Below, piece after piece: positions 1-40,337 of a stretch of DNA of 64,000 nt. Within the stretch, counting starts at the first letter, position 1. The number at the start of each line of letters is the position of its first letter. The position numbers were made by a program, and so were the translations under genes. Origin of the DNA: an uncultured Acidobacteriota bacterium (GTDB taxonomy: Bacteria > Acidobacteriota > Thermoanaerobaculia > UBA5066 > Gp7-AA6); the NCBI GenBank assembly GCA_963739435.1, contig CAVUAN010000005.1, forward strand, positions 168,128 to 232,127, given 5' to 3'. The notes beneath the pieces are model-generated. The model was given only the letters and a program-made list of their open reading frames with translations, was not told where the DNA came from and made no database searches.

Positions 1-74
1 CCTCGTGACCGGGCATCGTGTCTGCCTCCTGCGCGATCAAATCAGACGCCACCGGGCCGTGCAAGCGGCGGGCC

Positions 75-104
75 AAAAAAAATCGGGGGGCCAAAGCCCC
101 CCGA
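75..104 (-). terminator. Rho-independent terminator downstream of the RRM protein gene
   Basis: On the minus strand a 9-bp GC stem (TCGGGGGGC / GCCCCCCGA, 4-nt loop, about 83-104) is followed directly by an 8-nt T run (75-82). It lies 37 nt after the stop at 141. Confidence 0.7.
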
Positions 105-140
105 ATTCAGTCGGTCTCTTTTGAGAACAGCGGCTGATAT

Positions 141-455
141 CTAGTAGCGGTCGCGGCCACCACCGCCGCCGCCGCCGTAGCCGCCACGGCCACCGCCGCC
201 GCCGCCGCCGCCCGTCTTCGGGCGCGCCTCGTTGACCGTCAGCGCGCGGCCGCCAAACTCCTGGCCCGACAGGCCGGAGATCGCTGCGCGGGCTTCGGCC
301 TCGTCCGGAAACTCGACGAATCCGAAGCCCTTGGACCGGCCGGTGTCGCGGTCGGTGATGACGGCCACGGAATCGACAGTGCCGTACTGCGAGAACATTT
401 TGCGAAGATCGTCTTCGCTGGTGTTGTAGGGAAGGTTACCAACGTACAGTTTCAT
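141..455 (-). CDS. RRM-type RNA-binding protein with glycine/arginine-rich C-terminal tail
   Basis: Intact 104-aa ORF. It has the RNP-2 motif LYVGNL and the RNP-1 motif KGFGFVEF. The C-terminal tail is GGGGGGGGRGGYGGGGGGGRDRY. Confidence 0.9.
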   Translation of the reverse strand: MKLYVGNLPYNTSEDDLRKMFSQYGTVDSVAVITDRDTGRSKGFGFVEFPDEAEARAAISGLSGQEFGGRALTVNEARPKTGGGGGGGGRGGYGGGGGGGRDRY

Positions 456-593
456 CGAAGCAGAGTCCTGTTACCGGCGTCTCTTTTCCGGCCCCGCCGC
501 GCCGTTCGGCGGAATCGTCTTCCCGTTCAATTCGATCCGTCTTTGGCGAGCGCAGGAAAGCGTGCAAAAGGCGAGCGAAACGAGAAGGAGCGC

Positions 594-622
594 AGTCTAG
601 CAGCGGACCGCCCGGGAATCAA
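594..622 (-). promoter_or_regulatory. Candidate sigma70-type promoter for the RRM protein gene
   Basis: The minus strand reads TTGATT, a 17-nt spacer, then TAGACT. This would give a 5' UTR of about 130 nt. The -35 element overlaps the stop of the upstream FAD-subunit gene. Identified by pattern match only. Confidence 0.4.
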
Positions 623-1614
623 CCGCGTCCGGCGTTGCGTCCGGCTATTTCTCGCAGAGCCGCAGAAACAAAAGACTTCGTCACCTCTTTACGCCAGTGT
701 AAAGAAAAGTCCGTGTTGTCCATCGGGCGAGAGGGGCCGGCCGCTGCGGCCGAGGCAGCCGCGATCGTGCCGGCATCCAGACGGCGGCCAACGAGGGCCT
801 GCTCGGCCGCCACGAGCCGGATAGGGGCCGACGACACGCCTCCGAGCACCAGGCGGGCCTGCCGCACGGTCTCGCCTTCCCACCAGGCCGCGGCGCCCAC
901 CGAAAGCACCGGGAAGTCGAAGGATCCGCGCCGGCGAAGCTTCGCATAGCTCGCCCGCCAGCCTTCCGGCTTCGGCAGGCGGATCTCCGTCAGAAGCTCG
1001 TCGGGCCTCTTGGTCAGGTAGTGGATGCCGTCGTTCTGGTAGAGATCTTCGACCGCGACCTCCCGTTCTCCGTCCTTCGAGACGAGGAGCACGCGCGCGT
1101 TGATGGCGATCAAGACGGGCACCGAGTCGGCCGATTGGACGGCCAGGCAGGTCGGCGAGCCGGGCGCCACCCAGCAGATGTCGCCGTCCTTCTTCATGCA
1201 GAACTTGATCGCCTGCCGCCACTCGTAGTTCTGGTCGTAGTAGTTGCAGCGCGTGTCGAGCAACACGTTGCCGCCGAGCGTGCCCATGTTGCGCAGCAGG
1301 GGCGTCGATATCTCCTCGATGGCGTGCGCGAGCCCCGCGTAATGGCGCCTGATCCGCCGGTCGCGCTCGATTTCGGAAAGCGGCACGGAGGCCCCGATCG
1401 TGGGCCCCCCGGCGCCGAAGCGCATTCTCCGCAGCGACGGGATGCGCGAGAGGCCGATGACGGTCTTGGGCGTCTGCTGGCGCCGCTTCATGTTCGGGTA
1501 GAGATCGGTCCCGCCGGCGACGAACGACCCCTCGGGACCGGCGTCCGCCTTGATCGCGACCGCCTCCTTCACCGAGGTCGGCGCGTAATAGCGGAAGCGA
1601 GGGAGCCTCATCAT
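619..1614 (-). CDS. FAD-binding subunit of a xanthine-dehydrogenase-family molybdoenzyme (CoxM/XdhB/HcrB-like) with a 4-Cys insertion
   Basis: I trimmed track ORF 619..1686 to the ATG-ATG at 1614 (MMRLPRFRYYAPTSVKEAV...). It contains the FVAGGTDLYPNMK FAD-binding motif. The insertion RCNYYDQNYEWRQAIKFCMKKDGDICWVAPGSPTC gives a C-x15-C-x7-C-x8-C pattern. Confidence 0.85.
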   Translation of the reverse strand: MMRLPRFRYYAPTSVKEAVAIKADAGPEGSFVAGGTDLYPNMKRRQQTPKTVIGLSRIPSLRRMRFGAGGPTIGASVPLSEIERDRRIRRHYAGLAHAIEEISTPLLRNMGTLGGNVLLDTRCNYYDQNYEWRQAIKFCMKKDGDICWVAPGSPTCLAVQSADSVPVLIAINARVLLVSKDGEREVAVEDLYQNDGIHYLTKRPDELLTEIRLPKPEGWRASYAKLRRRGSFDFPVLSVGAAAWWEGETVRQARLVLGGVSSAPIRLVAAEQALVGRRLDAGTIAAASAAAAGPSRPMDNTDFSLHWRKEVTKSFVSAALREIAGRNAGRG

Positions 1615-1620
1615 GAGCGA

Positions 1621-1653
1621 GAGTCCAAAGTCCAAAGTCCAAAGTCCAAAGTC
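1621..1653. repeat. Tandem heptamer repeat (GTCCAAA x4) filling the spacer between the Mo-subunit and FAD-subunit genes; right arm of a 33-bp inverted repeat
   Basis: The plus strand reads gagtccaaagtccaaagtccaaagtccaaagtc. On the coding (minus) strand this is GACTTTG x4, lying between the TGA at 1654-1652 and the ATG at 1614. Confidence 0.8.
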
Positions 1654-4138
1654 ATCGCACTCCCCCGGCGCCGGTAACGACAGCATCGGCGGCCTTGCCG
1701 TCGCCGCCCTCTGAGGGTGTGAGAACGTGGATAGGTTCGGGATAGGGAATCTCCGGAAATCGGGTGGGTCCGTAACGCGCCGGCCTGCCCTGCGCTCTGG
1801 CCTTCAGCGCCTTCAGCACTTTTTCGGGCGTTGCCGGAACCTCATCCACGCGAACGCCCACCGCGTCGTAGATCGCGTTGACGACGGCCGGAGGAATCGG
1901 CAGCAGAGGGCCCTGTCCCACTTCCTTCGCGCCGTAGGGGCCGTTGGGATCCGGGTCCTCGACGAGGTACGTCTCGATCTCGGGCATCTCCATCGTGGTC
2001 GGGCTCTTGTACTCGAGCATCGAGGGAAACTTGTGGACGACGTTGTCGGCGACGTCGTCGCGGTAGGCCATCTCCTCCATCGTCGCTTCGCCCAGGCCCA
2101 TGTACACGGAGCCTTCGACCTGGCCGACGACGAGCGCGGGATTGATGCACTTGCCGACGTCGTGGGCGATCCAGATCTTCGGCACCCGGTAGATGCCGGT
2201 CTCGGGATCGACCGAGACCTCCACGACCGCCGCCGAATAGGAGTAGGCGGGCGACGGGCCGACACCCGCGCCGCGGTAGCGGCCGGCCGAGGGCGGCGGC
2301 GAGTACGAGCCGACCGTGCCGAGCGTGCCGAACTTCGACTCCGCCAGCACCGCGGCCTCGGCAAAGGTCATCCCCTTTTCCGGGTTTTCGACGTCGAAGA
2401 CGCGCCCGCCGGCCAGAGAAATCCGCACGCCGGGCACCTCGAGCTTCGCGCCGGCCGCGGCAACCAGCATCTCGCGGGCCCGCTCGGCCGCCTGAAGCGC
2501 GGCGTTGCCCGTCATGAGCGTGACACGCGAGGAGTAGGAACCCAGATCCACCGGCGTCAAATCCGTGTCGCCCGTCACCACGCGGATGTCGAAGGGGTCG
2601 ATCCCCAGCACTTCCGCCACGATGTAGGCCAGGACCGAGTCCGAGCCCTGTCCGATGTCGGTCGAGCCACAGAAGACCGTTACCCCGCCGCCGCGGTCCA
2701 CCTTCAACTGCACGCCCGACTGCGGCATGGAGTTCCAGTAGATCGGCAGCCCGGCGCCGCAAATGTAGGACGAGCAGGCGAGGCCGAGGCCGCGGTTGGG
2801 TGGCAGCTTGCCGCGCCGCCTCTTCCAGCCCGAGGCCGCGACGACCTTGTCGATGCAGGCGCCGAGGCCCATCGAGCCAATGCGGAGGTAGTTGGCCGTC
2901 AGCGAGTCGGGCGGCTGCAGGTGAGCCTTGCGCATCGCCGCCGGATCGAGGCCCAGGTCGCAGGCGATCTTGTCGAGCTGGGCTTCCAGAGCAAAGCGCG
3001 GCTGCGGCGTCCCGTGGCCGCGCTTGGGGCCGCAGGGCGGCTTGTTCGTGAAGACGCGGGCGCCGTCAAAGCGGTAGGCGGGCACCTCGTAGGTCACAGT
3101 TTGGAGCGCCCCCGTGTAGTACGTCGAGGCGACGCCGTAGGAACCGTAGCCGCCGCCGTCGAGCACCGTTTGCAGGTGCATCGCCGTGATCGCGCCGTCT
3201 TTTGTAACGCCCGTCTTCAAGCGCATCAGGGTCGGATGCCGGCCGCGGTGGCAGTAGAAAACCTCTTCGCGCGTCAGACAGATCTTCACGGGCCGGCCCG
3301 TCACCCGCGAGAGGTGCGCCACCACGATCTCGTGGTTGAACGGATCGGACTTGCCGCCGAAACCGCCGCCGTTGGGCGTCGCGAGGACGCGGATTCTTGC
3401 CGGCGGCATCTCCAGCACCTTGGCGAGGGCGCGGTGCACGTAATGCGGCGTCTGTGTCGAAGACCAGAGCGCGAGCTTCCCGTCGGGCCCGAAATCGGCG
3501 ACGGCCGCGTGCTGCTCGATCGGCAGGTGTGTCGAGCCCTCGTAGAAGAAGAGATCGTCGTAGGTCCGGTCGGCGCGGGCGAAGCCTTCTTCGGTCGAGC
3601 CGAACTCCATCGCCACGAGCTTGTGGAAGTTGCCGGAGTCGCCGTAGTCGTGGATCCTCGGCTCGGGCGTCGCGACGGCCTTTTCGATAGAGCCGATCGG
3701 CGTCAGGTCCTCGTAGACCACATCGATATGGCCGAGCGCAGCGACCGCGGCGTCCTCGTCCACGGCTGCGACAGCCGCCACGGGGTCGCCCACGAACCGG
3801 ACGCGGTCGAGGCACAGCGCGTGCTCGTCCTGCGAGACGGGCAGGATGCCGAAAGAAATCGGCAGGTCGCTTCCAGTTGCGACCGCCGCGACGCCCGGCA
3901 TCTTCAAGGCGCGCGACGTGTCGATCGAGACAATGCGGGCGTGCGCGCGCGTGCTGCGCAGGAGCTTGCAATGCAGCATTCGCGGCAGGACGATGTCGTC
4001 GGCGAACCGCGTCTTTCCAGTGACCTTGTCGACGGCGTCGACCTTGGGATGCGGCCGTCCCACGACGCGAGTCTGCAGGCGCGGCCCCCGACTCTGGACT
4101 TTGGGCTTCGGACTTTGGACTCCCCGCGGTTCGTTCAT
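1652..4138 (-). CDS. Molybdopterin-binding large subunit of a xanthine-dehydrogenase/aldehyde-oxidase-family enzyme (CoxL/HcrA-like)
   Basis: I trimmed track ORF 1652..4552 to the ATG at 4138, which overlaps the stop of the 2Fe-2S gene (ATGA). The N-terminus ..VVGRPHPKVDAVDKVTGKTRFADDIVLPRMLH.. and the length of about 828 aa are typical of this subunit class. An alternative GTG start lies at 4063. Confidence 0.85.
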   Translation of the reverse strand: MNEPRGVQSPKPKVQSRGPRLQTRVVGRPHPKVDAVDKVTGKTRFADDIVLPRMLHCKLLRSTRAHARIVSIDTSRALKMPGVAAVATGSDLPISFGILPVSQDEHALCLDRVRFVGDPVAAVAAVDEDAAVAALGHIDVVYEDLTPIGSIEKAVATPEPRIHDYGDSGNFHKLVAMEFGSTEEGFARADRTYDDLFFYEGSTHLPIEQHAAVADFGPDGKLALWSSTQTPHYVHRALAKVLEMPPARIRVLATPNGGGFGGKSDPFNHEIVVAHLSRVTGRPVKICLTREEVFYCHRGRHPTLMRLKTGVTKDGAITAMHLQTVLDGGGYGSYGVASTYYTGALQTVTYEVPAYRFDGARVFTNKPPCGPKRGHGTPQPRFALEAQLDKIACDLGLDPAAMRKAHLQPPDSLTANYLRIGSMGLGACIDKVVAASGWKRRRGKLPPNRGLGLACSSYICGAGLPIYWNSMPQSGVQLKVDRGGGVTVFCGSTDIGQGSDSVLAYIVAEVLGIDPFDIRVVTGDTDLTPVDLGSYSSRVTLMTGNAALQAAERAREMLVAAAGAKLEVPGVRISLAGGRVFDVENPEKGMTFAEAAVLAESKFGTLGTVGSYSPPPSAGRYRGAGVGPSPAYSYSAAVVEVSVDPETGIYRVPKIWIAHDVGKCINPALVVGQVEGSVYMGLGEATMEEMAYRDDVADNVVHKFPSMLEYKSPTTMEMPEIETYLVEDPDPNGPYGAKEVGQGPLLPIPPAVVNAIYDAVGVRVDEVPATPEKVLKALKARAQGRPARYGPTRFPEIPYPEPIHVLTPSEGGDGKAADAVVTGAGGVR
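4090..4122. repeat. Left arm of the 33-bp inverted repeat (degenerate heptamers) at the 5' end of the Mo-subunit gene
   Basis: The plus strand reads gactctggactttgggcttcggactttggactc. Its reverse complement matches 1621-1653 at 30 of 33 positions. Confidence 0.75.
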
Positions 4139-4734
4139 CGCTGCAGCACCGGAAGCAGGCCGCTCTCGTCGAAGTCCGTGCCGTAGAGGGATTCCTTCGA
4201 CGGGGCTGCGGCTGCTTCGCCGCGCATCCAGGCGGCGGCGAGCTCGACTGCCTCGAAGATCTTGATGTAGCCCGTGCATCGGCAGAGATTGCCGGCCAGG
4301 GCCTGCTGGATCTCCTTCCGCGTGGGCTTGGGGTTTTCCTCGAGGAGAGCTTTTGCCGTCAGGAGGAACCCGGGCGTGCAGTAGCCGCACTGAGCCGCGC
4401 CCAGGTCCGCAAAGGCCTTCTGCAGCGGATGGAGACCGGAAGGTCCCGCCATCCCCTCGACCGTCTCGATCGACTTGCCCTCGCAATCGAGACCGAGCAC
4501 CAGGCAGGAGAGGACGGGCTGGCCGTCCACCAGCACGGCGCACGTGCCGCACTCTCCCAACTCGCAGCCGTGTTTGGTGCCCGTCAGCCCCATGTCCTCG
4601 CGCAGCACCTCGAGCAGCGTCTTGTACGGAGCGAAGGCAACTTCGGCCGTCTCGCCGTTGCAGAGGAAGCGGAGGTGCGCCTTTTCGAGCTCGGGTGCCT
4701 CAGATTTCTTCGGGCGGGACATGGGAAGACGCAA
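4135..4734 (-). CDS. [2Fe-2S]-binding small subunit (CoxS/HcrC-like)
   Basis: The protein has a plant-type cluster, GCELGECGTC (C-x4-C-x2-C), and a second cluster, QCGYCTPG ... NLCRCTGY. The start is either TTG at 4734 or ATG at 4722. Confidence 0.9.
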   Translation of the reverse strand: MRLPMSRPKKSEAPELEKAHLRFLCNGETAEVAFAPYKTLLEVLREDMGLTGTKHGCELGECGTCAVLVDGQPVLSCLVLGLDCEGKSIETVEGMAGPSGLHPLQKAFADLGAAQCGYCTPGFLLTAKALLEENPKPTRKEIQQALAGNLCRCTGYIKIFEAVELAAAWMRGEAAAAPSKESLYGTDFDESGLLPVLQR

Positions 4735-4831
4735 TCTAATCCCTTTGGTTTCTGAAGGAAAGGTCGCGTATGCTGACCGACCGGTCAGGTGGACTGCAAG
4801 CCCCTCTGCTGCAATCTCATAGGCTTGCCCG

Positions 4832-5954
4832 ATGAAGCTCGAAACTCTTTTCGTCCACGCCGCACATCACATCGACAAGGAGACGGGAGCGGTCGCGCCG
4901 CCTATCCACCTCTCCACGACTTTTGCGCGCGGCGCGGACAACGCCCTGATCGGCCCGACGCAGTACATCCGCGAGGGCAACCCGACGCAGTCGCTGCTCG
5001 AAGAGGCGCTGGCGCCGCTCGAAGGCGGCGAGGCGGCCCTGGCCTTCGCGTCCGGAATGGCGGCGGGCGTCGCCGTGCTCCAGAGCCTGGAGTCCGGCAG
5101 CCACTTCATTCTGCCCAACGACATCTACTACGGCTACCGCGTCGCGGCCCGCGACTTCCTCGAGCGCTCGGGCCTGCAGACCGACGCGGTCAACATGGAC
5201 GACCTGGCGGCTCTCAAGAAGGCGCTTCGCCCCAACACCAGGCTCGTCTGGCTCGAATCGCCATCGAACCCGCTCATGAAGGTGACGGACCTTGCGGCGG
5301 CGGCCGCCCTCGCGCGGGCCGCGGGAGCAGTCGTTGTCGTCGACAACACGTTCGCCACCCCGGTGCTCCAGCGCCCGATCTCCCTTGGCGCCGACATCGT
5401 GCTCCACGCCACGACCAAGTACATCGGCGGCCACAGCGACGTCCAGGGAGGGGCCCTCGTCTTCAAGAGCAAGAATGAGTTCTTCGAAAGGGTCGAGCAC
5501 GCCCGGCACATCTTGGGCGGCGTCGGCTCCCCCTTCAACGCCTGGCTCGCCCTCCGCGGCCTCCGGACGCTGCCCGTACGCATGGAGCGCCAGAGCGCGA
5601 ACGCCATGGCGATCGCCCGCGCCCTCGCGAAGCACCCGGGCGTCTCGGCCGTGCACTACCCGGGCCTCGAGTCCGATCCCGGGCACACCATCGCGAAGCG
5701 TCAGATGACGGCCTTCGGCGGCATGCTCTCGATCCGGGTCAAAGCCGGGCGCGAGGCGGCCATCGCGGCTGTGTCGGAAAGTTCGGCTCTTTACGAGGGC
5801 GACCTCTTTGGGCGGCACCGAGAGCTTGATCGAGCACCGCGCCACCAGCGAAGGCCCGACTTCCACGACGCCGCCAGACCTCCTGCGTCTTTCGATCGGC
5901 CTTGAACACTCAGACGACCTGATCGCGGACCTCGACCAGGCACTCCGGTCGTGA
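4832..5954 (+). pseudogene. Cys/Met-metabolism PLP enzyme (cystathionine gamma-synthase / beta-lyase family), single frameshift near 5765-5785
   Basis: The N-terminal 310 aa are typical of the family, including the PLP-lysine motif ATTKYIGGHSD. After ..GREAAIAAV the canonical C-terminus continues in the +1 frame to TGA 5952-5954 (RKVRLFTRATSLGGTESLIEHRATSEGP..LLRLSIGLEHSDDLIADLDQAL). The total length of 1123 nt is not a multiple of 3. Confidence 0.75.
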
Positions 5955-5955
5955 G

Positions 5956-6942
5956 TTAGACCGGCGTCCGCATGGGGACGACCCGGGGCTGACCGGAACC
6001 GCCCAGGGCCGGGATGACTGGCCCGCGCGGCACAGGAGTGAGGGTGGGGCCGGACGGCGTCGGCGTTGCCGTTGGCTGCGGCGTCCGGGTCGGGCTGAAG
6101 ACCGGCGTCGCCGTCGGCGGAAAAGGTGTCGCCGTCGCCAACGGCGTGGCTGACCGGGTGGGCGTTGCCGTCGGCGGCGTGCCGCTCGGGGTCCGCGTCG
6201 GCGTGAATGTCGTCGTTGCCGTACGCGTCGGCGTCGACGTGGGAGGCGTGCCGGTGATCGTGGGCGTGTGCGTCGGGGTTCGGCTCGGCGACGGACTTGG
6301 ACTGGGTGAGGGTGATGCGGTGAATGTCCGGGTGAATGTTGCGGTCGCGGTCGGCGTGAACGTCGGCCCGCTGCTCGTATTCGTCGGCGACGCCGTGACG
6401 CCCGCCGTCGATGTCCGCGTCGGCGTGCTCGAAAGCGTCGGTGTGAACGTCGCTGTCGCCGTGCGCGTCGGCGACGCTGTGAACGTCGATGTCGGCGTCA
6501 GAGAGGGCGTCCACGTCGAGGTATTGGTCGGTGTCGGCCCGTCGTCGTTCAGGATCGTGCCGGTGCCCGTGTCCCGCAGGAGCGTCGCGTTGGTCGGGTT
6601 CGAGAGAACGACGGTGAACGTCTCGTTCTGCTCCGCGACGGTATCCCCGACGATTGGCACGCTGATCGTGCCGACCAACCCACCCGCGAAGATGATGAGC
6701 GTGCCGGACCGGAACTGGTAGTCGTTGTCCGCCAGCGTCGCCGTCCCATCGACGGTCATGTAGTCCACCGTGATCGTGAACGTGCTCGCAGCCGAGAGGT
6801 TGACCGTGAACACCGCGTTCGTCGTCCCGAAGTTGCCTTCGGGCGTCGCCACGTCGTTGATCGATAGGGTCGGAGTCTGCGCCGCCGCGACGCCAGCGAG
6901 CAGCCAGCCAGCGAAGACAGCAAGGAATGTGCGCGTCTGCAG
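5956..6942 (-). CDS. Secreted Calx-beta domain protein with long Pro/Thr-rich C-terminal region
   Basis: The Calx-beta signature is present ([29 protein letters not shown]...[24 protein letters not shown]...GTILNDD). It is followed by about 190 aa of PT/ST repeats. A signal peptide ([22 protein letters not shown]) is encoded upstream of the track start at 6852. The only start option before it is CTG at 6942, preceded by GGAG. An in-frame TAG lies at 6957-6955. Confidence 0.7.
5990..6540 (-). repeat. Low-complexity Pro/Thr/Ser-coding repeat region inside the Calx-beta gene
   Basis: The translation is TPTxTxT / SPSPSPSPS repeats. The GVGVAVG-type ORF 6014..6721 on the plus strand is the antisense artefact of this repeat. 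Confidence 0.6.
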
Positions 6943-20172: not shown

Positions 20173-21654
20173 TCACCCGGCTTCGACAGCGGCGCCTGCG
20201 GCGCTCCGCGGGGCTGCCTGGCGCTCGCGGCCGCGAAACAGGTTCTCGAGGATCTCGACCGCGAGAATTACCGGAAGCACTCGGTAGAGAAGGAGGACCC
20301 CGAGGTAGAAGGTCGTGTTTCGAAAACACTGGTAGACGGTCAGGGTCATCCACGCATAGATCACGACGGACCAGAATCCCTCTTTCCTCCGGGACGCCCA
20401 GCGGTGGACGAGCGCCAGGACGACGCCTAGCAGGATGCCGCGGCCGATCAGATCGGGCACGCCGCCGCCCGCGATCGACTCGGAGATCGTCCCAAACGCA
20501 AACGCGGCCCCGGCCGCCGCAAAGTCCGGGTAGTACTCGTTGGCGTACCAGACGGCCGGCTCGACCTTCGGGATCGGGGACAACTGCTGCGGCACCAGGG
20601 CCAGGACGTCGGCCAGCCGGAAGCCCAGCGTCACATTCACGTCGTGGTCGGCCCGCCGCTGATCGAGATCGTAGGCATTCGCAAAAAGAGATTCGAACTC
20701 GTTCGTGTACGCAAACGGGTTCCAGCCGACGGAATACTCCGACTGGAGGATGCCGCTGCGCAGGATCCCCGCGGCGAGAAACAGAGCGATGACGGCGCCG
20801 GCGCCAATTGCCAGGAGGCGTTCGGAGACCGGCTTGACCAGCCAGTGGTAGGCCATCATGGTCCCGGCAGAGAGCAGGACGAATTCGGTTCGGCTCCAGA
20901 GCCGGGCGAAGGTCGAAGCCCCGATCGCCAGAAGAATGACTGCGATCAGCCACCGGTAACGGCGGAAACTGGCGCACAGGGTCACCAGGATCGCCACTTC
21001 CAGGGTGAATTTCATGCCGCCGACGTGGTTGGTCACCTGTGCCACGAGGAGCGGCAGCCTCTTCAAGATGAGATAGCTCTCGTTGTACTCCTCGACCGAG
21101 AGATTGAAGATCTGGCCGAGGACCCAGAAGTAGCCGAAGATCGACACCAGCAGCCCGACGATCACCACGACCCGACGCCGCCCCGGAGGGCGCAGCCGCA
21201 CGCGAAACCGGGCCCGTCCCCGGACGATCCGGTACGCGACGGAGAAGCACACGAGGTGGATCACGTAGAACCACGCAATGTGCCCCACCTCCCGCGGCGA
21301 GGGTTGATAGACGAACAGCCGGATATCGTTCGTGACGGCGTAGAGAAGGCGGTTGGCCATGTAGCCCACGAGAGGGAAAACGGCATAGAGCGTCACGACC
21401 GCCGCGTAAACCGTTCCGACCTCCACCACGGCGTCGCCCTGACTGCCGGCCAGCGACCCGTAGAAGGCGCCGGCCACCCAAACGATGGCAACGACCGGCG
21501 CCATCACCGGCAGGTTCCTGTCCGTAGCGAAGACCGCGGCGACGAGCGTCGCGAAGACGGTCAGGAGCAGCCAGGAGGGAACGCGGAATGGAAACGTCCT
21601 CCGTCGGGCGGCCCGAACCGCGACGGGATGCTCTGTTGCGATGTTTTCGGCCAT
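20173..21654 (-). CDS. Polytopic membrane protein, candidate repeat-unit polymerase (Wzy-like)
   Basis: The 493-aa ORF has about 10-12 hydrophobic helices and one large loop. It sits between a GT and a flippase gene. I recognised no diagnostic motif. Confidence 0.5.
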   Translation of the reverse strand: MAENIATEHPVAVRAARRRTFPFRVPSWLLLTVFATLVAAVFATDRNLPVMAPVVAIVWVAGAFYGSLAGSQGDAVVEVGTVYAAVVTLYAVFPLVGYMANRLLYAVTNDIRLFVYQPSPREVGHIAWFYVIHLVCFSVAYRIVRGRARFRVRLRPPGRRRVVVIVGLLVSIFGYFWVLGQIFNLSVEEYNESYLILKRLPLLVAQVTNHVGGMKFTLEVAILVTLCASFRRYRWLIAVILLAIGASTFARLWSRTEFVLLSAGTMMAYHWLVKPVSERLLAIGAGAVIALFLAAGILRSGILQSEYSVGWNPFAYTNEFESLFANAYDLDQRRADHDVNVTLGFRLADVLALVPQQLSPIPKVEPAVWYANEYYPDFAAAGAAFAFGTISESIAGGGVPDLIGRGILLGVVLALVHRWASRRKEGFWSVVIYAWMTLTVYQCFRNTTFYLGVLLLYRVLPVILAVEILENLFRGRERQAAPRSAAGAAVEAG

Positions 21655-35886: not shown

Positions 35887-36046
35887 GGGAGTCCAACTCA
35901 ATTGTCTTGAGCCGTCCCAGCGGTTCCGGTTTTGGTCTTTGGACGGGAACCTCGGGGACGCCTCTCGACCGAAAGGAGGCGACCAGACACGGCCACACGA
36001 GCATCGCGATGTCGAAACCTGCTTTCATCAAGAATAGGAGGCTTTC
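35887..36046 (+). promoter_or_regulatory. Conserved leader of about 160 nt, copy 1 (candidate cis-regulatory RNA or operator region)
   Basis: By hand alignment, about 150 of 160 positions are identical to 40180-40337. The leader contains the palindrome CTCAA-TTGTC-TTGAG. It also contains the hairpin CGCCTC(11 nt)GAGGCG, whose 3' arm is a decoy Shine-Dalgarno sequence identical to the real GGAGGC at 36037-36042. Confidence 0.5.
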
Positions 36047-37867
36047 GTGAGTCGGAAAACAACCCGCTGGATCAGTCTCGCCCTGGGTCTGGTGTTCCTC
36101 GCAACGGTCCCCCTGCTCGCGGCCGCAGCAGCACCTCCCCTGACAAACTGGACCTCCCCGGCGACATACACCCCGCAATCGACTCGAAAGGGTCTTCATA
36201 CGGCCGGGGACCTCACGGGCCCACTGCCATTCGTTCCCATCGCACCGTGCCGGCAGTACAACACGACCAGTCCCGTGGCGCCGCTCCTGCAAGCCACGAA
36301 CCGGGCCGTGCCGCTGACGGGCGCGCCCTGCGGGATCCCGACAGATGCGGTCGCGGTTGCGGTCAACATCACGATTTTCAACATCATCGGCGCGGCTGGA
36401 AACGGCGTCTTCAAGGTCGACACCGTGTCGCCGCCACTGAACGCCTGGATCAACTATCCGCCGACGGAGGCGCAAAGGGGTAACGCCGGAGTCGTGTCCT
36501 TGAATGCCAGCGGCCAGATCATCGTTCAGGTGGCCCAGGGCGCCGGCCAGATCGACTTCGTCGTCGACACCAACGGCTACTACCCAAATACGGACTCCAC
36601 ACATCTCCTGAACGTTGGTGAAATGTTCCAGATAGCCTCGAACAACGCCGGCACCCCTGTGATCCTCGGTGTCAACACCAACACCAGCGCCAACAGCACC
36701 GGCGTCCGCGGCCTTGCCCTCAGCACGACCGGTGGCGGAATTGGGGTGTGGGGTCAGCACTTCGGCTCGGGCTGGGGCGTGTACGGCTTTTCGCCGAGCG
36801 GCATCGGGGCCTTCGGCCAATCCAATACCGGTCTTGGCGTTGAGGGACTGAGCACGGACTACAACGGTGTCTGGGCCCAAGCCACGAACTGGGATGCTCT
36901 GGCCGCGTTCGGCGGCCGGGATGGCGGATATCTCCAGGGCGCTCGCCACGGTGTCATCGGCGTCTCGACGGCGACAACCGGCATCGTCTACGGCGTCGAC
37001 GGGTCCTCAGCCAGTCCTGCCAACGGCTCCGCGGGAGTCCGAGGCTTCGATAGCAGCGGATACAGCCCGGCCGGGGCGCCAAACGGGCAGGCTGGAGTCT
37101 TTGGAACCAGTCAAACGACATTCGGTGTGGTGGGTACATCGCGTTACGCGGGTGTTTACGGGCAGCTCATGAACGGAGCGGATGCCCTGATCGCTTATGG
37201 CCTCCTCGGGACGACCTTTGGCACGGCCGCTGACACCACGACGGGTCCCTGGGGAGTCTTCTCCGCCGGTAACTTCGGAGCGACAGGCACGAAGCACTTC
37301 GTCGAGCCGCATCCGAGCGATCCCAAGAAGGTGATCCTGTACTCCTCGATTGAAGGTCGAACAGTCGATAACTTCTTCCGCGGTACGGCTCGTTTCGTCA
37401 ATCATGAAGCTGTCATCGAGGTGCCGGAAGACTTCCGCATCGTTACGGACGAGGACGGCCTGACGGTGCAGCTGACTCCGGTGGGAGGCTTTGCTTCAAT
37501 GTACATCGAGAGCCAGGACCTCAACCGGATCGTCGTGAAGTCCAACAAGGACGTGCAGTTCCACTACCTGATCCAGGGCATACGCCGGGCCTACAAGGAC
37601 TTCCTGCCAGTCCAGACAGGTTACGAGTTCATGCCGACCTCGCCGGAAGACCGGTTGCCCTTGTATCTGACAGAGGAATCCAGGCGGCGCCTGATCTCCA
37701 ACGGCACCTACAACGCCGACGGGACTGTCAATATGACGACGGCCGAGCGGGTGGGTTGGGCAAAGATTTGGGCCGACAAGGCTCAGGCAGCGGCTGAGGC
37801 GGCCAAGGCGGCCCAGGCGCGCGCGCAAGAGATGTCCGTCTCCAGGGTTTCTTCGCAACAGCAGTAG
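36047..37867 (+). CDS. Secreted fibre-like protein, paralogue A1: signal peptide, N-terminal two-Cys module, Gly-rich repeats, conserved C-terminal domain
   Basis: - GTG start after AGGAGG.
- Signal peptide MSRKTTRWISLALGLVFLATVPLLAAAAA.
- Module ..APCRQYNT..GAPCGIP..VVDTNGYY.
- Degenerate G-[VI]-x-G-x-S repeats.
- C-terminal region GTKHFVEPHPSDPKKVILYSSIEGRTVDNFFRG...NGTYNADGTVNM. Confidence 0.8.
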   Translation: MSRKTTRWISLALGLVFLATVPLLAAAAAPPLTNWTSPATYTPQSTRKGLHTAGDLTGPLPFVPIAPCRQYNTTSPVAPLLQATNRAVPLTGAPCGIPTDAVAVAVNITIFNIIGAAGNGVFKVDTVSPPLNAWINYPPTEAQRGNAGVVSLNASGQIIVQVAQGAGQIDFVVDTNGYYPNTDSTHLLNVGEMFQIASNNAGTPVILGVNTNTSANSTGVRGLALSTTGGGIGVWGQHFGSGWGVYGFSPSGIGAFGQSNTGLGVEGLSTDYNGVWAQATNWDALAAFGGRDGGYLQGARHGVIGVSTATTGIVYGVDGSSASPANGSAGVRGFDSSGYSPAGAPNGQAGVFGTSQTTFGVVGTSRYAGVYGQLMNGADALIAYGLLGTTFGTAADTTTGPWGVFSAGNFGATGTKHFVEPHPSDPKKVILYSSIEGRTVDNFFRGTARFVNHEAVIEVPEDFRIVTDEDGLTVQLTPVGGFASMYIESQDLNRIVVKSNKDVQFHYLIQGIRRAYKDFLPVQTGYEFMPTSPEDRLPLYLTEESRRRLISNGTYNADGTVNMTTAERVGWAKIWADKAQAAAEAAKAAQARAQEMSVSRVSSQQQ

Positions 37868-40179: not shown

Positions 40180-40337
40180 GGGAGTCCAACTCAATTGTCT
40201 TGAGCCGTCCCAGCGGTTCTGGTTTGGCCTTTCGACGGGAACCTCGGGGACGCCTCTCGACCGAAAGGAGGCGACCTGACACGAGACACGAGCATTGCGA
40301 CGTCGAAACCTGCTTTCATCAAGAATAGGAGGCTTTC
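40180..40337 (+). promoter_or_regulatory. Conserved leader of about 160 nt, copy 2
   Basis: See copy 1. This copy has the same palindrome, the same CGCCTC/GAGGCG hairpin and the same GGAGGC Shine-Dalgarno sequence. Confidence 0.5.

Follow-up and report, generated by a model that had tools for sequence, protein, structure and literature searches.

Organization of the cox-like operon

The window, meaning the whole stretch of 64,000 nt that was analysed, comes from the genome of an uncultured Acidobacteriota bacterium (G000, 87% complete). Three minus-strand genes forming a coxS-L-M-like operon were identified in it from their Pfam domains (Table 1), which bore out the molybdopterin- and FAD-subunit genes of the initial annotation. 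The coxL start codon overlaps the coxS stop codon, and the arms of a 33-bp inverted repeat sit at both ATGA stop/start overlaps of the operon. CoxL orthologues, 80-85% identical, were present in all 24 genomes of the family; an exact-protein look-up among public assemblies returned no identical CoxL.

Table 1. Features of the cox-like operon, related sites in the window and the gene-bearing copy of the repeat
Feature	Position	Strand	Description
coxS-like gene, 2Fe-2S small subunit	4135-4722	-	Pfam Fer2_2 (3e-32) and Fer2
Upstream arm	4090-4122	-	Degenerate four-unit array, 3 substitutions; mRNA GAGUCCAAAGUCCGAAGCCCAAAGUCCAGAGUC
coxL / xanthine-dehydrogenase family gene, molybdopterin large subunit	1652-4138	-	Pfam MoCoBD_1, MoCoBD_2, Ald_Xan_dh_C
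Shine-Dalgarno-like GGGGGAG	1660-1666	-	In coxL 3' end, 4 nt before relay-ORF ATG
Relay mini-ORF	1611-1655	-	14 codons (MTLDFGLWTLDSRS, stop); ATGA-to-ATGA arrangement
Downstream arm	1621-1653	-	Perfect array of four heptamers; GTCCAAA on plus strand, CUUUGGA on mRNA
coxM-like gene, FAD medium subunit	619-1614	-	Pfam FAD_binding_5, CO_deh_flav_C
Two-unit relic-like match	35931-35944	-	A1 leader; GTCCAAAGACCAAA
Two-unit relic-like match	40223-40236	-	Paralogous A2 leader; GTCGAAAGGCCAAA
PF05635 cassette	Contig C30, 20972-21609		Arms 20972-21000 and 21579-21609; 138-aa gene in loop, 110 bits

On the plus strand the downstream arm reads gagtccaaagtccaaagtccaaagtccaaagtc, for which Tandem Repeats Finder (TRF) reported, at 1622-1653, a repeat of period 7 present in 4.6 copies with 100% matches. 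It occupies the coxL-coxM spacer and shares its final 2 nt with the coxL stop codon. The earlier description of a copy filling the entire 37-nt spacer (1615-1651) was accurate, except that the GGA motifs in it number four and not five. The upstream arm begins about 13 nt past the coxS stop codon, with CCGCGGGGA as the flank on its upstream side; as first described, it lies just past the ATGA junction and is in frame, supplying residues 6-16 (GVQSPKPKVQS) of the large subunit. The inverted repeat itself was confirmed from the sequence, with TRF and by a repeat search (arms of 33 nt, 91% complementary at 30/33 positions, 2436 nt between them) and was by far the longest within 1500-4300. When the window was searched for the 14-mer with up to 3 mismatches, 8 sites were found against 2.45 expected, a number reached in 0 of 100 shuffles, and six of the eight fall inside the two arms. 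Rfam covariance models run against positions 1-6000 gave no match up to E = 1.

The coxM gene starts with ATGATG (MMRLPRF), and the MMRLP start is kept in orthologues. Within the spacer, a relay ORF overlaps the coxL stop codon with its ATG and the coxM start codon with its TGA, each time as ATGA. The GGAGG/GGGGGAG motif ahead of it was found in all orthologues, there serving the directly overlapping coxM start. Judged by phase and conservation, the relay ORF is probably translated and links coxL to coxM. Phase and conservation likewise suggest that CoxL starts at ATG 4138 with a repeat-encoded N-terminal extension: in 13 of 20 genomes the coxL start codon overlaps that of the coxS stop in frame, and, apart from GTG 4063, no alternative in-frame start exists. 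The latter codon had been put forward as the possible true start, which is unlikely given that the residues T-R-V upstream of it are conserved in orthologues.

Related strings had also been noted in the A1 and A2 leaders. They are present, but in each of these paralogous leaders the match spans only two units and has 1-2 mismatches. About 45 nt downstream of the 35931-35944 match lies a GGGGAGTCCAA-type string in inverted orientation, and the A1 match may conceivably be a decayed family member.

A dispersed family of heptamer arrays

The suggestion that the arms belong to a dispersed REP-like family proved right. Genome-wide, 292 matches to the 14-mer were obtained, compared with 12 for the reversed control, and about 95 arrays were counted on both strands (98 by a custom scan, 84 by TRF). 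Array length was 29-33 nt in 72 of the 98, and the modal TRF copy number was 4 (63/84). Short conserved sequences flank the four units (GGRGA on the 5' side, GRGC on the 3' side), and the variant units GTTGAAA and GTCCAAG/T are common to dispersed loci. The upstream cox arm has the position and flanks typical of the family.

Placement was scored for 83 arrays: 51 lie in co-directional gene gaps, 15 between convergent genes and only 3 between divergent genes, while 14 overlap coding ends. Sense-GTCCAAA arrays begin 1-21 nt past a stop codon, and single arrays comprise about 40 in sense and about 12 in antisense orientation. The genes adjoining arrays share no common function. Relay or in-frame arrangements were seen at 10 of 35 array-bearing junctions compared with about 12% of controls, a moderate enrichment obtained with a crude home-made gene caller.

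Sixteen close pairs were found, all ordered GTCCAAA-arm, loop, TTTGGAC-arm and forming hairpins with dG of -44 to -72 kcal/mol. Other array pairs, 1-3 kb apart, were direct as often as inverted. In a test for the functional strand, the 16 doublet stems held 25 G.U and 15 A.C. Because the doublet loops are non-homologous and the element boundaries vary, a simple cut-and-paste element fits poorly. A single Y1_Tnp gene (PF01797, C16:48392-48724), considered as a RAYT, was rejected; the inverted repeat on either side of it is 27 nt long, perfect and unique, and there are no heptamers nearby. Literature searches on the GTCCAAA unit and on heptameric repeats in Acidobacteria returned nothing relevant.

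Junctions in related genomes

The arms are not a feature of orthologous operons, which carry bare ATGA overlaps or unrelated arrays. The bare junction cgATGATGcgc was found in G004, G010, G013 and 9 metagenome loci. Elsewhere the coxL-coxM junction holds 7-8-mer arrays of GGCGAAA, ATCACCCG, GAGGCGT, AAATTCG, ATTTTGG with GTCTCAC, GATGCGG, ACGAGAT or AATCAATG. The ancestral junction sequence is unrelated to the GTCCAAA unit. A relay ORF running from ATGA to ATGA was present in 9 of the 11 relatives with a spacer of at least 18 nt (shuffle P ~9e-7). Complementary arrays at both junctions were found in 0 of 19 orthologous operons; hairpins in these operons are local doublets at one junction.

The same pattern was seen at a second junction, egtB-egtD, and junction occupancy is correlated between genera despite different units. 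At orthologous junctions of G005 and G000, arrays were present in both genomes at 5, in G005 only at 7, in G000 only at 0 and in neither at 28. Unrelated units at the same junctions of sister genera point to targeted settlement or genome-wide rewriting. Within one genus (G014 and G006), the loop has diverged between arrays that are still nearly perfect, and between congeneric genomes the copy number at one site was 10 in one and 3 in the other. In loci with 10-nt spacers the junction itself is tandemly duplicated over a short local stretch. Target-site duplication was considered for the ATGA doubled around the insert at cox and egt, but boundaries differ between the loci and a fixed duplication was not established; the definition of a relay itself demands NTGA on both sides.

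Cassettes carrying a PF05635 gene

PF05635 (23S-rRNA-IVS/Avd-like; S23p) genes encode a small four-helix-bundle protein. Both such genes of this genome are bracketed by its dominant families, one by GTCCAAA arrays (Table 1) and one by the octamer AATCAATG. Among above-cutoff PF05635 genes of five relatives, 12 of 13 have arrays on at least one side and 11 of 13 an inverted pair; among loci with the C30 cassette protein or a homologue, that of G000 included, the corresponding counts were 20 of 21 on at least one side and 17 of 21 on both. Protein relatedness tracks unit sequence and period: the closest homologues of the cassette protein have the closest units (GTCTAAG, GTCCGAA), and the octamer-flanked proteins form a separate 100/100 clade. 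In G005, many GTCCAAR arrays were found, none of which was detected as an arm of a PF05635 gene, and G001 keeps two PF05635 matches with almost no arrays.

In this genome exactly one PF05635 gene lies between arms of either dominant family, which provides a concrete protein to test. The product of the gene-bearing copy is a candidate partner for the protein-binding array proposed in the initial annotation. An action of this protein on the arrays, and the manner in which copies spread, are presumed here.

Origin of the two arms

The two cox arms are most probably independent, gene-less solo arms of the dispersed GTCCAAA family, and their complementarity a by-product rather than a selected clamp. 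This origin was judged on family membership, positions, reading frames, the comparison of orthologues and the association of cassettes with PF05635, all of them observed directly. The complete form of the family would be a hairpin cassette of arm, loop and inverted arm, copies of which would settle immediately downstream of stop codons. Since all six frames of GTCCAAA are free of stop codons, copies should be tolerated even within translated sequence. Both cox landing sites are ATGA overlaps used in translational coupling, where only phase-preserving outcomes would survive: the upstream copy would lengthen the N-terminus of the large subunit in frame, and the downstream copy would be read as a 14-codon relay ORF whose start is the former SD-ATG at the stop codon of coxL. 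With the TGA of the relay ORF overlapping the coxM ATG, termination-reinitiation coupling would be kept. The mutual complementarity of the arms would follow from family membership.

A long-range RNA clamp, in which the arms pair in the polycistronic mRNA and loop out coxL to set subunit stoichiometry, is improbable. Variants of this proposal have the 33-bp duplex either mask the relay ORF together with the coxM start or undergo RNase III cleavage in the manner of an IVS. Such pairing is energetically possible: co-folding gave a duplex of -55.3 kcal/mol, and the minimum free energy (MFE) structure of the naked 2581-nt RNA contained 31 arm-arm pairs, the forbidding of which cost 41.5 kcal/mol. 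The arms also have the order of all 16 hairpin doublets and of the PF05635 cassette, the genome has an RNase III gene, and heptamer-built 28-bp IVS stems are cut by RNase III (PMC4990558). The comparison of orthologues, however, with its lack of any operon carrying complementary arrays at both junctions, does not support a clamp, and neither do the kilobase-scale pairs elsewhere in the genome with their indifferent orientation. In addition, the downstream arm is of perfect consensus and shows no changes that compensate the upstream arm's three transitions, and ribosomes would normally cover or unwind the upstream arm because it lies in translated codons 6-16, 2.4 kb before its partner. The cox arms do share the head-in polarity of true cassettes and pair in the computed MFE structure, which was counted against the by-product view, and their pairing may have a function.

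It is very unlikely that the CUUUGGA array acts as a set of translation signals, its SD-like or CsrA-type GGA sites and UUG starts driving or throttling coxM. The four GGA motifs are spaced 7 nt apart with the last 9 nt before the coxM ATG, in the CUUUGGA orientation every unit places a GGA 9 nt ahead of a UUG, and a start codon follows 3-23 nt after the end of several arrays so oriented. Yet the family occurs in both orientations, mostly after stops and also between convergent genes, unrelated units without GGA fill the same spacer in relatives, and the conserved strong SD precedes the relay ORF, not coxM. CsrA-type sites in particular, as envisaged in the initial annotation, are improbable, since a PF02599 search of the 87% complete genome found no CsrA gene. 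Coincidental expansion of two microsatellites in place by replication slippage is scarcely credible. Many bacteria have an excess of heptamer simple-sequence repeats, for which slippage has been proposed as the cause (PMC4692102), and the 10 and 3 units at one congeneric site would suit it; the genome-wide census contradicts it, with the same unit, four-unit length and flanks at about 95 loci and shared variants at dispersed ones, as does the unrelatedness of GTCCAAA to the ancestral junction. A protein-binding regulon, in which the arrays are putative RNA or DNA sites for a cognate PF05635 oligomer co-regulating the ~95 junctions, is possible though rather doubtful; on the origin of the arms it is compatible with the preferred reading. 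It draws on the single PF05635 gene between the arms of each dominant family, the protein clades that track unit sequence and period, the near-perfect arrays around a diverging loop in G014 and G006 and the orientation bias of single arrays. Xanthomonas S23p is reported to be a homopentameric toroid (PMC4990558), which the modal number of 4-5 units could fit. Against it stand the lack of a common function among adjoining genes, the near absence of arrays in G001 despite its two PF05635 matches and the apparent lack of expression of Coxiella S23p (PMC4990558).

With the arms read as two solo copies of the family, a tempting but unsupported regulatory story is removed from the operon and its annotation is fixed (ATG 4138 start, relay ORF). 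The relay-ORF rule shows how repeats can enter translationally coupled operons without breaking them.

Comparison with known repeat systems

In the 23S rRNA IVS of Coxiella burnetii, a 28-bp heptamer stem, RNase III cleavage and an S23p ORF were described by Warrier et al. 2016 (PMC4990558). The C30 copy (20972-21609) shares with it a ~28-bp, heptamer-built stem of terminal inverted repeats and a loop encoding S23p/PF05635, and the IVS stem consists of 3-4 tandem heptamers whose number varies between strains. Having ~28-bp inverted repeats and an S23p ORF, the C30 copy is a cassette of the IVS kind, whereas the cox pair, with coxL as its loop, is not. Unlike the IVS, located in 23S rRNA helix 9, 25 or 45, the copies examined here sit between protein-coding genes or at their ends. 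The cox arms bracket a 2.4-kb enzyme gene and apparently arrived separately, and dozens of copies here are gene-less.

With the REP/BIME (REPIN)-RAYT systems the family has in common that it is dispersed, extragenic and genome-specific, that singles and inverted doublets occur, and that one protein gene is flanked by its own repeats. REP elements, reportedly, were noted by Gilson et al. in 1987 at conserved locations with species-specific sequence, a further likeness. In contrast to REP and REPIN, a single GTCCAAA arm is a direct tandem repeat and not a palindrome, so that only doublets fold, and the flanked gene encodes a four-helix-bundle protein and not a Y1 transposase, with no cognate RAYT.

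Mycobacterial interspersed repetitive units (MIRU), said to have been described by Supply et al. in 1997, are short repeats inside operons. Their small ORF reportedly overlaps the preceding stop and the following start, preserving translational coupling, and the units are said to be 40-100 bp long and in one orientation. The relay ORF at 1611-1655 likewise overlaps the upstream stop and the downstream start, as a MIRU-like intercistronic relay element would; the likeness is a functional analogy only, the sequences being unrelated. MIRU differ in not being heptamer-built, in having no known PF05635 link and in their one-way orientation, both orientations occurring in the GTCCAAA family.

The STRR class has been unexplained since 1990. 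Dispersed heptamer repeats were described by Rehm et al. 2015 as GGGAATC in Xanthomonas and GGGGAYT (STRR) in Nostoc/Anabaena, with four units modal, convergent pairs and an intergenic location close to the upstream ORF (PMC4692102), and STRR hairpins occur between hupS and hupL (PMC2670836). The GTCCAAA family is a new member of these STRR/Xanthomonas-type repeats. It shares with them 7-nt units in tandem, head to tail, a single unit dispersed in tens to hundreds of copies over the genome (~90-190, both strands being used), a mostly intergenic position close to where the upstream ORF ends, arrays of about four units and frequent convergent, hairpin-forming pairs. Positions between genes for subunits of one enzyme are also shared, stability or translational coupling having been suggested as function. 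The family differs in its Acidobacteriota host, in the PF05635 gene of its full-length copy, in the relay ORF or frame kept by copies at coupled junctions, in the unrelated units at sister-genus junctions and in a unit without a G-tract. A G-quadruplex account of the four units cannot apply here because GTCCAAA lacks a G-tract; four units are preferred even where the unit cannot form G-quadruplexes. We tentatively propose, as a reading with a fair amount still against it, that heptamer and octamer arrays of the STRR class are cis-arms of selfish or regulatory hairpin cassettes with a PF05635 oligomer as partner protein. In this joint proposal each PF05635 paralogue would recognise a 7- or 8-nt unit of its own, of which four to five would match the oligomer, gene-less arms would spread to, or be rewritten at, stop-codon-proximal sites, and at ATGA-coupled junctions only copies keeping a relay ORF or the reading frame would persist. 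The pair around coxL, as two such sites, might also permit an IVS-like excision of coxL by RNase III. The preference for four units, the unrelated units at shared junctions of sister genera and the PF05635 gene of each dominant family, with protein relatedness that tracks the unit, bear on the old question of what dispersed heptamer repeats are.

Arms of the cox operon

Genes at 619-4722 of the window form a coxS-L-M/xanthine-dehydrogenase-type operon. The 33-nt inverted repeat that the initial annotation had placed around coxL was borne out: 1621-1653 (plus strand; downstream arm) is a perfect heptamer array (TRF: period 7, 4.6 copies, 100% matches), and 4090-4122 (upstream arm) is complementary to it at 30 of 33 positions, 2436 nt separating the arms. 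On the mRNA, the upstream arm is GUCCAAA-like and makes up codons 6-16 of the large subunit, directly past the ATGA in which the small-subunit stop codon and the large-subunit start overlap; it begins ~13 nt past the coxS stop and is preceded by CCGCGGGGA. The downstream arm reads CUUUGGA and occupies the 37-nt spacer 5′ of the FAD-subunit ATG, where four GGA motifs were counted instead of the five annotated. A conserved GGGGGAG Shine-Dalgarno sequence (1660-1666) precedes not coxM but the start of a mini-ORF that runs from one stop/start overlap to the next (relay ORF).

Features of the cox operon (window positions) and PF05635 genes of the source assembly (contig C30)
Feature	Position	Strand	Remarks
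2Fe-2S small subunit gene (coxS)	4135-4722	minus	Pfam
Molybdopterin large subunit gene (coxL)	1652-4138	minus	Pfam
FAD medium subunit gene (coxM)	619-1614	minus	Pfam
Relay ORF	1611-1655	minus	MTLDFGLWTLDSRS, stop
PF05635 gene 1	C30:21101-21514	minus	between (GTCCAAA)4 20972-21000 and (TTTGGAC)4 21579-21609
PF05635 gene 2	C30:37216-37578	minus	between inverted AATCAATG-type octamer arrays 37154-37189 and 37590-37626

The GTCCAAA family in the genome

The source assembly (G000; 3.52 Mb, 67% GC, 87% complete; window at C5:168128-232127) was searched in full with the 14-mer GTCCAAAGTCCAAA, allowing up to 2 mismatches, resulting in 292 matches versus 12 for the reversed control. Together with the 98 arrays found on both strands by our own scan, this confirmed the suggested dispersed repeat family. 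Array length was 29-33 nt, or four units, in 72 of the 98, and TRF gave four copies in 63/84 arrays. Copies share a 5′ flank, GGRGA, often preceded by CCGG, and a 3′ flank, GRGC or TC-G, and the variant units GTTGAAA and GTCCAAG/T recur at dispersed loci; the arrays therefore derive from one another and not from independent slippage. All 16 close pairs were ordered GTCCAAA-arm, loop of 7-55 nt, TTTGGAC-arm, with predicted folding dG of −44 to −72 kcal/mol.

Outside the cox operon, genes were called with our own crude codon-usage caller. By these calls, 51 of the 83 arrays measuring 25 nt or more lay between co-directional genes, 15 between convergent and only 3 between divergent genes, while 14 overlapped coding ends; sense-direction GTCCAAA arrays start 1-21 nt past the stop codon. 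A second family in G000, the octamer AATCAATG, comprises ~47 arrays (mode 4-5 copies), and two further families are minor.

Arrays in TTTGGAC orientation were also seen in frame at the extreme gene start (C8:259689-259718 and C6:90422-90454), where the encoded N-termini resemble signal peptides (MILLPLDFGLWTLDSRKVLVLLLAGIVAVGGC..., MTLGLWTLDFGLWTLRRSVAILALPAAIL...); translation either begins at the in-array UUG or includes the repeat as n-region. Concerning the related strings annotated in the paralogous A1/A2 leaders, a GTCCAAA-like match was found in each, but of two units only (35931-35944 and 40223-40236, minus strand). About 45 nt 3′ of it, in inverted orientation, is a GGGGAGTCCAA-like string. 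The two may represent a short doublet that has decayed, its stem reduced to 6 bp.

Distribution of the unit across 40 relatives is patchy (178 matches in G000, 123 in G005, 38 in G013, 21 in G002, 0 in most), and the exact 29-mer was found, with different flanks, in MAGs of many phyla (Pyrinomonadaceae, Verrucomicrobiota, Planctomycetota, Flavobacteriia). Array density by TRF was ~73 in 400 kb for G005 (at least 10 unit families, mode four copies), ~32 in 200 kb for G014 and 2 in 200 kb for G001. The reversed-pattern control (GAAACCT repeated) matched 294 times in G005, a genome with an abundant CCTGAAA family of its own.

Orthologous junctions and relay ORFs

Orthologous operons were taken from 19 genomes of one family with G000 (CoxL 80-85% identical). 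The bare coxL-coxM junction is a cgATGATGcgc stop/start overlap, present in G004, G010, G013 and nine metagenome loci. Filled junctions read cgaTGA-insert-ATGATG, the insert being a four-unit 7-/8-mer array or hairpin doublet of unrelated unit. Likewise, the basal state of egtB-egtD is a GTGA/ATGA overlap, and this junction carries the genome's own family in G000, G014, G006, G005, G009 and G002.

Array units at two gene junctions
Genome	coxL-coxM	egtB-egtD
G000		GTCCAAA
G001	ACGAGAT	
G003	GGCGAAA	
G005	ATCACCCG	ATCGGGTG
G009	AAATTCG	AAATTCG
G012	AATCAATG	
G014	GAGGCGT	GGCGTNA (with G006; orthologous within genus, 10 vs 3 units)
G018	GATGCGG	
G019	ATTTTGG + GTCTCAC	

Across 40 gene junctions common to G005 and G000, arrays were present in both at 5 (6 with the degenerate cox arm), in G005 only at 7, in G000 only at 0 and in neither at 28. 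Units at the shared junctions differ; site occupancy is therefore conserved or recurrently targeted, and the sequence genome-specific. As the relatives compared with G000 belong to different genera, insertion boundaries cannot be fixed.

Nine of the 11 genomes with a coxL-coxM spacer of at least 18 nt have an ORF that begins on an (A/G)TG overlapping the coxL stop, is stop-free across the entire insert, whose length reaches 112 nt, and has its TGA stop overlapping the coxM ATG (P ~9e-7 by spacer shuffling with random phase). Such relay ORFs would be translated; their genome-wide enrichment, by the crude gene calls, is modest. Relay ORFs running from ATGA to (A/T)TGA across GTCCAAA arrays were seen in G000 at C9:33186-33215 (egtB-egtD) and C9:154227-154257 (HD-domain gene-glyA), encoding MSKAGESKVQSPKSKGARSRR and MRELGSPKSKVQSPKGTR, each followed by a stop. 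The 10-nt spacers of metagenome loci L217 and L221 (TGAcgccATGATGcgcc) look as if the junction had been duplicated locally in tandem, yielding a 3-codon relay ORF; spacers may have first arisen in this way, arrays coming later.

At coxS-coxL, the stop-overlapping start codon is in frame with CoxL in 13/20 genomes. The G000 array lies in frame, with ATG 4138 on one side of it and the conserved T-R-V-V-G on the other. Upstream of T-R-V, G000 has no further start codon in this frame, so that ATG 4138 is, from the sequence, the likely CoxL start and not GTG 4063, as had been considered. A (GTCCAAG)4/(CTTTGGA)4 hairpin at this junction in G005 is also read as a relay ORF.

Pairing of the arms

It was initially suggested that the arms could pair as a long-range RNA clamp setting subunit stoichiometry. 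Pairing itself is predicted: the arm-arm duplex reaches −55.3 kcal/mol, the MFE structure of the 2581-nt RNA contains 31 arm-arm pairs, and forbidding them costs 41.5 kcal/mol. An RNase III gene is present in G000. A selected clamp is nevertheless quite improbable, as the pairing is conserved in no orthologue, G000 alone among the genomes compared having complementary arrays at both cox junctions. Moreover, the downstream arm matches the family consensus exactly, the three upstream-arm differences are all transitions within the translated region, and kilobase-scale array pairs elsewhere are as often direct as inverted. The upstream arm is a typical member of the GTCCAAA array family of G000.

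The CsrA-type sites proposed for the spacer found no counterpart, no CsrA gene being detected in the G000 assembly (87% complete), and window 1-6000 gave no Rfam family match. The only IS200/RAYT-like Y1 transposase gene of G000 (312 aa, C-terminal part DnaA-like) lies within C16:47792-48801 (locus L149 901-1903), between the arms of a perfect 27-nt inverted repeat, GGGTCAGTCGTGTATCCATGTATATTG, absent elsewhere in the assembly.

PF05635 cassettes

Contig C30 carries the two PF05635 genes of G000, one inside the arms of each family; there is therefore exactly one gene-bearing cassette (arm, loop with PF05635 gene, inverted arm) per dominant family. For G005, G014, G001, G019 and G009, 12 of 13 above-cutoff PF05635 genes had such arrays, 11 as an inverted pair, and those in G005 are of the units dominating its TRF census. 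The CCTGAAA family of G005 has a PF05635 cassette at C1:2663675-2664070. Loci of the GTCCAAA-cassette protein or a homologue were flanked by arrays on one or both sides in 20/21 cases, and on both in 17 (that of G000 counted). The closest proteins (61%, 57% and 39% identity) accompany the closest units (GTCTAAG, GTCTAAG and GTCCGAA, respectively), and octamer-associated proteins form a separate clade (support 100/100). This clade represents about one change on the tree, so the link of protein to unit period is suggestive, not statistical. PF05635 proteins may act on the arrays.

Comparison with known systems

No literature was found on such heptamer repeats in Acidobacteria, or joining heptamer repeats, IVS stems, S23p/PF05635 and Avd. 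Xanthomonas has 186 GGGAATC repeats, mostly of four units, 70 being convergent pairs (Rehm et al. 2015; PMC4692102); 89-93% are intergenic, ~28 nt from the upstream ORF, and GGGGAYT repeats were reported in Anabaena too (PMC4692102). For the STRR hairpins located between hupS and hupL, an influence on translational coupling or on the stability of the transcript has been proposed (PMC2670836). In the 23S IVS of Coxiella, the 28-bp stem contains 3-4 tandem GACAGAT heptamers, differing in copy number among strains; RNase III cuts within this stem, and the IVS encloses an S23p ORF (PMC4990558). The S23p of Xanthomonas is a homopentamer (PMC4990558), and PF05635 is similar to the DGR protein Avd (PMC10053308).
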